Positions 25,086 through 26,466 of a DNA stretch of 64,000 bases are shown piece after piece. Both the position numbers and the translations under genes were made by a program. The notes below the pieces were generated by a model. The model was not told the DNA's origin. It ran no database searches and saw nothing but the letters and a program-made list of their open reading frames with translations. Source of the DNA: a virus (taxonomy: Duplodnaviria > Caudoviricetes); IMG/VR virus record IMGVR_UViG_3300021431_000091, positions 32,001 through 96,000 of that record; one strand, written 5' to 3'. Position 1 is the first letter of the stretch. Each line of letters begins with the position of its first letter.

Positions 25086-26466
25086 GAAGTGCAAGGTGTC
25101 CATGAATTCAGATTCCCGCTCATTAATTACGCCCACTTCACACCCTCGCGGTTAACACCGCAGAGGAGGTTCAAGGGCGTAACAAGAAGCTGGAAACATC
25201 TACAAAATAAAGAGACAAGCAAGGACAATGAGCACTTCTACTGACAGCGCAGTTATGGAACACAAGGTATCAATTAATTCAGTGTCTACGATGAGTAATA
25301 AGGCGGCCAGCACACGGACAATACCTGCTTTCACAGGTACAGGTCCAGTGTGCGGCAGCCTCACACTCAATCGAGGCTACATCTATATACTGAAGGGATG
25401 CGCCATGATATTGAGTGTTCCAGCTGGAAAGCGCATGATGGAATACAAGGCATCAAAATTCATTCCTCTGGGATTGAAGAAGGTGATCTTCCAGGAGGCT
25501 CTACAGGAATATATCCTGTGTACCCTCCAGGACGATCACCTTCGATTCCCAGACTTCAATCTGAGAATTAAAGAAATGCGCCGTGATGATGAGTATTCCT
25601 GCCCAGCACAGGGCATAGGGCAAAAGGCATTAGGTTCAGAGCACCTGGAGCCAATAGCTGTTGGAGTCAGCTTCTTACTGGGAACAATTCCCAGTTCTAA
25701 GCTGGAGCCAACAGCTCCTTCCAGGTTAAACATCTGCTTAGTAAAGATATGTGCTGCAATGCATGATGTCCTACTCGTTTTGTCTGCATTGACTGAGGTG
25801 GTATATGGTGGCAAATTCAAGCAAGATGGCATATCAACAGAATCCAGAACGCGGCAGCACCTATTGTTGCAGTGCCGCGTAGCTTAGATTCTGTTTCACT
25901 TGCCATCTGATTATCTGAGAGATAAAGTAAAATGCAAAGTCACAAAGTATCACAACACCAGCACAGGGCTATGGCTTCGAGGACCTGGTGTTTCAGTTCA
26001 CCCGTTAGTATGCCTCTACAGCGGGATACGACGTGTAATACCTTCTACGTCGTATCCCGCTTCCAAAGCAACCGAACGGGTCGGGCGCAACATCTGTGTA
26101 ATAAAGTAATGTGCCAAAAGGTATGAGGAGCTGTTACATCCCAGCACAGGGTTATGGTCAAGGGCAGAGCGTTCACTAAACAGTGAATGATATGACTCAA
26201 TAATCCTTGTGATGATCTTCAACCAGATCCTAACCAGGATTATCGGAAGTCATCCTTGCACTGTTTGCAATCTGACCAATAAAGAAAGTGCCAGTCTGCT
26301 GAGACCAGTTTTAGCGTGAAAATAATGTACAAGAAAGTCAATCCTGTTCACTAAACCGGATCTAAGTACATCCGAGGGCCGATCTCATATTTGAGATGGC
26401 CCGTCTGATGTAGTATCACCGGTTTCGATCTGCATATTAAAGAAACACGCCACGACTTTGAGTACA
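25086..26466 (+). ncRNA. Array of 8 structurally conserved ncRNA units downstream of the RT
   Basis: Units at 25086-25238, 25257-25421, 25440-25599, 25616-25773, 25798-25953, 25971-26134, 26155-26307 and 26326-26466; shared scaffold stem-AAGG-stem-TTCA-[hairpin]-ATCT-N6-TAAAG-..GC..-stem-TGA-stem. Confidence 0.85.

Follow-up and report, generated by a model that had tools for sequence, protein, structure and literature searches.

Reverse transcriptases of the UG27 class are among the commonest in the phages of the human gut. In the stretch of phage DNA analyzed here (hereafter the window: 64,000 nt, positions 32001-96000 of IMG/VR record G000, which comprises 105,456 bp and is an estimated 95% complete), a gene of this class is followed by an array of units, each of which carries a long hairpin of its own, referred to below as the cargo. 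The locus raises the question of whether the cargos are templates for DNA synthesis and, if so, what the resulting DNA would act on. Relatives of this phage are located in Bacteroidales.

The UG27 locus and the structure of its units

The locus consists, in this order, of a 424-aa reverse transcriptase (RT) ORF, 1.39 kb devoid of a conserved ORF, ORFs of 150 aa (sORF) and 359 aa (bORF), and a short non-coding stretch (Table 1). The RT was assigned to the PADLOC profile RT_UG27 with an E-value of 2.5e-207, residues 1-424 being aligned to all 420 positions of the profile, the second-best PADLOC profile being UG26 (8.5e-33). Its RT domain was recognized by Pfam (RVT_1, E = 8.8e-17, residues 63-273), and the catalytic motif R-Y-S-D-D-M-L-F was read directly at about 24466-24489. 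The RT, sORF and bORF genes were all present in 77 of 80 related IMG/VR loci, and the order RT-(array)-sORF-bORF was found in 71 of the 80. No matches to sORF or bORF were detected in Pfam, PHROG or PDB. The AlphaFold model of the sORF product (pLDDT 91.5) had no structural neighbour (best VIA-align Z 3.4; Foldseek E > 1), and the structure search with the bORF product, in which residues 112-355 form a confidently modelled helical domain, returned generic helical-bundle matches alone (Z up to 7.2); PDB profile searches, Foldseek and VIA-align gave no functional clue for either accessory protein. The locus is a real, complete and typical UG27 system.

Table 1. Features of the UG27 locus, in positions of the window; z values compare folding of the cargo with shuffles.
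Feature	Position	Strand	Support
UG27-class reverse transcriptase, 424 aa, YSDD active site	23802..25076	+	Pfam, PADLOC
Main ncRNA array, units U1-U8	25077..26466	+	ATC-N7-TANAG motifs, scaffold profile
Cargo U1, 87 nt	25111..25197	+	RNA z -6.4; DNA z -4.8
Cargo U2, 99 nt	25282..25380	+	RNA z -7.3; DNA z -6.5
Cargo U3, 96 nt, duplex GATC in stem	25463..25558	+	RNA z -7.9; DNA z -7.7
Cargo U4, 93 nt	25639..25731	+	RNA z -7.2; DNA z -6.3
Cargo U5, 93 nt	25820..25912	+	RNA z -7.1; DNA z -7.1
Cargo U6, 96 nt, 16-bp perfect stem	25996..26091	+	RNA z -6.5; DNA z -5.5
Cargo U7, 94 nt	26176..26269	+	RNA z -5.6; DNA z -5.4
Cargo U8, 77 nt, short last unit of main array	26351..26427	+	RNA z -6.0; DNA z -5.5
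sORF, small accessory protein, 150 aa	26489..26941	+	adjoins RT in 77/80 related loci
bORF, large accessory protein, 359 aa	27001..28080	+	present in 77/80 related loci
Detached ninth unit (U9), 3' of bORF	about 28085-28270	+	motif at 28225, outer stem
Cargo U9, 96 nt, detached unit	28129..28224	+	RNA z -6.8; DNA z -7.3

The motif ATC-N7-TANAG was found at positions 25198, 25559, 25732, 25913, 26092, 26270 and 26428 of the main array and at 28225 in U9, and a copy with TGAAG in place of TANAG was found at 25381, which gives eight exact copies and one variant. TTCA was present 77-99 nt upstream of each of the nine copies. The anchors TTCA and ATC(T) and the cargo lengths given in the preliminary description (87, 99, 96, 93, 93, 96, 94, 77 and 96 nt) were reproduced exactly at nine stretches, and the stems that it quoted for U6 and U9 were found in the sequence. 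Its division of the array into units of the form ATCT-scaffold-TTCA-cargo, in turn, proved to be circularly permuted relative to the real RNA unit, in which the two flanks of one and the same cargo pair with each other. The energy of pairing between the 5' flank of a cargo and its own 3' flank was -16.7 kcal/mol, versus -9.2 kcal/mol with the next unit and -8.8 kcal/mol (sd 3.9) for random combinations, and that of the pseudoknot duplex was -6.8 versus -5.3 for random combinations (both over 382 units). In the window, outer stems ranged from -12.0 to -23.9 kcal/mol, the value for U9 being -23.9, and pseudoknots ranged from -3.9 to -10.9 kcal/mol. The segment following TANAG pairs with the loop of the 5' hairpin, and the pairs covary (GCACA:TGTGC, GCGCA:TGCGC and GCGTG:CACGC). 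The predicted unit is composed of a small 5' hairpin, the outer stem, UUCA, the variable hairpin, AUC-N7-UANAG, and the 3' strands of the pseudoknot and outer stem; the U3 unit, read from the sequence, spans about 168 nt.

A profile built from 140 scaffolds of other loci had matches in the 105-kb genome that were confined to this array. No Rfam family, retron or other, was detected on the array, the search having returned only noise below threshold from microRNA and snoRNA families. Programs for tandem and direct repeats registered no tandem or near-identical repeats in the array, the units being too diverged. A 219-aa ORF running through U2-U5 (25228-25887, plus strand) is considered spurious, having no conserved counterpart in related loci, with the sole exception of nucleotide-level homology in the closest relative, locus L001. 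A scan for sigma-70 promoters and terminators gave nothing above shuffles. An identical stretch, ACAATTTAAAAACAA, is located 3' of U8 (26466-26488) and 3' of U9 (about 28262-28285), in both cases just before the next ORF, and could serve the two units as a common leader or as a processing signal. The phage also carries four tRNA genes (Met-CAT, Lys-TTT, Arg-CCT and Ser-CGA; window positions 40272-40424 on the minus strand and 45126-45569 on the plus strand).

Cargo hairpins as predicted templates of reverse transcription

As RNA, the nine cargos form long imperfect hairpins with z from -5.6 to -7.9 relative to dinucleotide shuffles. The nine predicted cDNAs, i.e., the reverse complements folded with DNA parameters, had z from -4.8 to -7.7, and 0 of 200 shuffles folded equally well; the predicted cDNA of U1, for example, is the complement of 25107-25200. 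The mean pairwise identity among the nine cargos was 0.566, compared with 0.562 in shuffles. The description of each unit as bearing an unrelated long imperfect hairpin is thus upheld, since the folds surpass those of shuffles and cross-identity is at the shuffle level. The helices are short, the longest perfect run having a median of about 9 bp, and contain 3-5 interruptions; the hairpins have no common geometric ruler, the first helix being 1-17 bp long with a broad peak at about 7. It had also been proposed that U7 and U8 arose by duplication and divergence. The sequence GTTCACTAAAC is indeed present at 26171 and 26346; merely 6 of its 11 bases belong to the cargo, and the remainder of the two cargos is random-like in similarity (0.55), so a recent duplication of U7/U8 is not supported by the sequences.

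Mestre et al. 2022 (PMC9226505) defined UG27 within class 2 of the UG/Abi RTs, as a group carried by phages and accompanied by two partner genes of obscure function and a putative ncRNA. According to a preprint of September 2026 (bioRxiv 10.64898/2026.09.22.753630), the same architecture occurs in 14,118 loci, with arrays of units of about 149-167 nt; a unit has a pseudoknot, a basal hairpin and a central hairpin that varies, and its asymmetric internal loop bears UUYA and AUCN7UANAG. The preprint further reports that five cloned systems yield single-stranded DNAs (ssDNAs) of 50-100 nt (strand-specific DNA sequencing), that the cDNA starts at the AUC of AUCN7UANAG and ends after UUYA, and that ssDNA requires the RT active site together with sORF and bORF. 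One of the tested systems, that of Alistipes putredinis DSM 17216 (locus L106), has an RT 65% identical to the RT of the window and is laid out in the same way, again with a unit after bORF.

The earlier proposal that TTCA and ATCT bound the template agrees with the start and stop points that the preprint gives for the five homologous systems (10.64898/2026.09.22.753630); the template boundaries are considered right because these homologues start at AUC and stop after UUYA. The further proposal that each unit gives a different hairpin DNA likewise corresponds to what was sequenced for these five systems. It is probable (about 0.8) that the nine cargos are the reverse-transcribed central hairpins of nine UG27 ncRNA units and that cDNA is produced from them, the latter point leaning, for this phage, on systems whose RTs are about 65% identical. 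By homology to the five tested systems, the RT would act together with the 150-aa and 359-aa proteins, begin synthesis at AUC and halt after UUCA. The products would be nine different single-stranded DNAs of about 84-106 nt in the form of imperfect hairpins with short unpaired tails.

Turnover of the cargos between related phages, a comparison suggested in the preliminary description, was evident: the fraction of cargo families in common fell from 0.93 at RT identities of at least 99% to 0.33 at 80-90% and to 0 below 70%. The closest relative, L001, has an RT that is 82% identical and possesses positional homologues of U3, U5, U6, U8 and U9, which are visible in global alignments alone. The identity of U3 to cargo 1 of L001 was 68-75%, U6 was homologous to cargo 4 of L001, and the homologue of U8 was also short (72 nt). 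In these homologous cargos, the basal stems and the hairpin were kept, and the middles were rebuilt. The array of the window has two extra units at its 5' end relative to L001, and the unit after bORF is present in L001 as well as in A. putredinis. A blastn search of the window cargos against 452 cargos from 79 loci gave zero hits, and, except for the distant homologues in L001, the cargos were common to none of the 108 other loci examined. Among GenBank phages, RT-level similarity of about 65% alone was found (e.g., Bacteroides phage BS-TP1), and the array was unmatched.

Possible targets of the hairpin DNA

The preliminary description suggested that the cDNA hairpins display palindromic duplex sites in their stems and so soak up restriction enzymes or other sequence-specific DNA-binding defence proteins. 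Palindromes were counted in the 5' halves of the cargos alone, because a stem palindrome is otherwise counted on both arms, with dinucleotide shuffles as the control. Short palindromic sites are present in the stems, as described; their number in this array is not above chance (24 versus 25.6 +/- 4.3 in shuffles), and no single palindromic motif was significant there. The same was observed in 110 cargo families from 80 loci, which are not fully independent, deep homology being visible between families: 265 palindromic 4-mers versus 282.9 +/- 14.7 and 58 palindromic 6-mers versus 68.2 +/- 8.3 (z -1.2 in both cases). The motifs that the phage avoids most are avoided in the cargo too. CTAG is absent from the whole 105-kb phage (0 versus 111 expected), as are CATATG, CTGCAG and GATATC (0 each versus about 30 expected each); its observed/expected ratio was 0.13 in cargo and 0.09 elsewhere, and the 26 six-base palindromes most avoided in the flanks occurred 30 times in cargo versus 53.6 expected. 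Many further 6-bp palindromes are likewise absent from the phage genome. As a class, palindromes thus give no enrichment of the kind expected of restriction-site decoys, at this locus or across the families.

Two motifs form an exception in the comparison of cargo with flanks. GATC and CGCG were the top two cargo-versus-flank outliers among all 136 strand-symmetric 4-mers, with observed/expected ratios of 0.92 and 1.47 in cargo, 0.17 and 0.17 in scaffold, 0.23 and 0.38 in flanks, and 0.38 and 0.84 in ORF-free flanks, respectively. The GATC excess was found in 13 of 17 RT clusters and was repeated in 84 further prophage cargos (1.11 versus 0.20). Among cargo GATC sites, 77% were fully paired, and a perfect duplex GATC was present in 18 of the 110 families. 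Domains of DNA methyltransferases (Dam, N6/N4 or C5) were not detected in the 105-kb genome; if the decoy explanation holds, some other protection would therefore be needed, which is in its favour. Against it, apart from the class-wide counts and the scarcity of the most avoided motifs, stand the facts that GATC is present in just 28 of the 110 families, with a within-family retention (0.77) similar to that of other stem words, that the helices are short and interrupted, and that each cargo site is also located in the double-stranded genome of the phage itself. Moreover, the host genomes deplete GATC and CGCG as well; the depletion is therefore a lineage signature and not clearly restriction avoidance. 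A restriction-site decoy is accordingly judged improbable, and the escape of cargo from the lineage-wide depletion of GATC and CGCG, as it appears from motif counts, is a lead and not proof. The idea that the cargo is host-like DNA was rejected, since hosts deplete both motifs too and since the flanks track the hosts (r = 0.92) and the cargo follows hosts and flanks alike poorly (r 0.37 to 0.59).

Two further words were noted in the course of these counts. CCAG/CTGG is strongly over-represented, with an observed/expected ratio of 1.85 in the phage (both strands) and of 2.3 in cargos versus 1.0 in the flanks of other loci; together with the missing CTAG, this resembles the signature ascribed to very-short-patch repair. 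A second word, TTAACCAGA or ACCAGAA, is found again and again at a depth of about 13-19 nt in the cargos of L003, L005, L015, L039, L043, L059, L060 and others, at varied array positions and in varied RT clusters (compare window positions 25838-25850 in U5), and reflects either deep unit homology or a positional signal inside the template.

Another explanation is that the cDNAs or RNA hairpins are guides that pair with host, phage or competitor nucleic acids, in the manner of CRISPR spacers or antisense RNAs. The array does resemble conserved repeats alternating with variable inserts, and the inserts turn over among related phages, with shared families falling from 0.93 to 0. However, the searches of host and phage genomes revealed nothing beyond chance, either in the phage or in 406 Bacteroidales genomes. 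The cargos had no match longer than 12 nt elsewhere in their own 105-kb genome. In 401 Bacteroidales genomes, 3 hits were obtained at a per-genome E of at most 0.005, with about 2 expected, and the best hit in five prophage-bearing hosts (E = 0.004) was an exact 22-nt match between U4 and a Bacteroides genome, which lies within an 872-aa coding ORF and was set aside as being at chance level across all genomes searched. An exact search of IMG/VR with the 24-nt U6 stem gave zero matches. Pairing in trans is also disfavoured by the self-complementarity of the inserts, and the preprint likewise reports no obvious complementarity (10.64898/2026.09.22.753630). A role as guides is considered very unlikely.

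The two strands of the cargo differ in composition and stability. On the RNA-sense strand, the GC skew of the cargo was negative, i.e., C-rich, in 90 of the 110 families (mean -0.092, p = 2.8e-15) and in 8 of the 9 cargos of this array, whereas scaffold (+0.036) and ORFs (+0.09 to +0.22) were G-rich. As a consequence of this skew, the cDNA sense was the more stable in 85 of the 110 families with RNA parameters and in 91 with DNA parameters (p about 1e-11), and the advantage was repeated in 68 of 84 new cargos. In the outer stem of the scaffold, by contrast, the RNA sense was more stable in 204 of 318 cases. Single mismatches in cargo stems are pyrimidine-pyrimidine as RNA and hence purine-purine as DNA. 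These sequence statistics suggest that the DNA hairpin itself, and not the RNA hairpin, is under selection; the asymmetry could instead arise because the RNA template has to be weakly folded, or from a mutational bias. That the hairpins matter as RNA alone, e.g., for loading of the RT, for processing or for stability, with the cDNA as a by-product that has no role of its own, is what the strong RNA-level folds (z -5.6 to -7.9) and the unproven role of the cDNA might allow; it is considered very unlikely, given that the cDNA sense folds better in 91 of the 110 families, that GC skew flips between cargo and scaffold within one transcript, opposite to what an RNA-only role predicts, and that three dedicated proteins are conserved for making cDNA. 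As far as the accessible text of the preprint goes, neither the GATC/CGCG escape nor the C-rich strand bias of the cargo was found reported in it (10.64898/2026.09.22.753630).

If the hairpins act as DNA, the folded molecules would most likely act on proteins, by their shape or by short duplex words, and not by pairing with a genome; this protein-binding part of the explanation is given somewhat less than an even chance. In its fuller form, the explanation would be that the array encodes a fast-evolving library of hairpins selected as DNA, each of which serves, through its particular shape or word, as a decoy or aptamer for a DNA-recognizing host protein, such as a repair factor, a defence sensor or an enzyme that reads GATC or CGCG. 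Such a library would explain the escape from GATC/CGCG depletion in the cargo only, the recurring duplex stem words and the better-folding cDNA strand; it is put forward tentatively and with a low probability. The comparative tests narrow the options, in that the hairpins are unlike guides and unlike general displays of restriction sites, and the exemption of the cargo from GATC/CGCG depletion gives bench experiments a concrete starting point. Should the hairpins turn out to be protein decoys, they would represent a new principle of anti-defence and offer a natural means of producing defined ssDNA in cells.

Comparison with known systems

A CRISPR array and a diversity-generating retroelement were both considered and rejected for this locus: the former because near-identical direct repeats are lacking and the hairpin inserts have no matches, and the latter because no second copy of a cargo was found in the 105-kb genome beyond 12-nt chance matches. 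CRISPR arrays share with the locus the alternation of recurring elements with length-constrained, unit-specific inserts and the gain and loss of units between relatives. They differ in that the recurring parts here have structure and short motifs in common, not sequence, and in that the inserts are self-complementary and have no match in any genome searched; cas genes are absent.

Retrons are marked by a single msr-msd with flanking a1/a2 repeats and by a 2'-5' branched G. In them, as in the predicted mechanism, the RT copies the hairpin part of an adjacent ncRNA (msr-msd) into short, multicopy hairpin ssDNA (msDNA). However, the RT of the window does not belong to the retron clade, the best retron profile (RT_Ec107-like) having E = 3.2e-11 versus 2.5e-207 for UG27. 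There are nine templates per RT, located downstream of it, versus one upstream in retrons, and the system is phage-borne, with two unrelated accessory proteins and no recognized toxin effector. The class 2 UG/Abi systems DRT2/UG2 and DRT9/UG28 have a related RT (Drt9 HMM, E = 9.7e-21) and also make cDNA from a neighbouring structured ncRNA. They differ in serving host defence and in copying one ncRNA into long cDNA that is concatemeric or homopolymeric, whereas the present system is phage-encoded and would give many short discrete hairpins.

The closest correspondence is with the published UG27 systems. The RT clade, the two accessory genes and the Bacteroidota phage hosts are the same, as are the units of ~170 nt, the placement of UUYA and AUCN7UANAG around a variable hairpin, the pseudoknot and the extra unit in the neighbouring intergenic region. 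The predicted cDNA length of about 84-106 nt lies at the long end of the 50-100 nt given in the preprint. Nothing essential is different. The kind of system is already published, and the locus, which adds no new kind, is one more member of the UG27 family.
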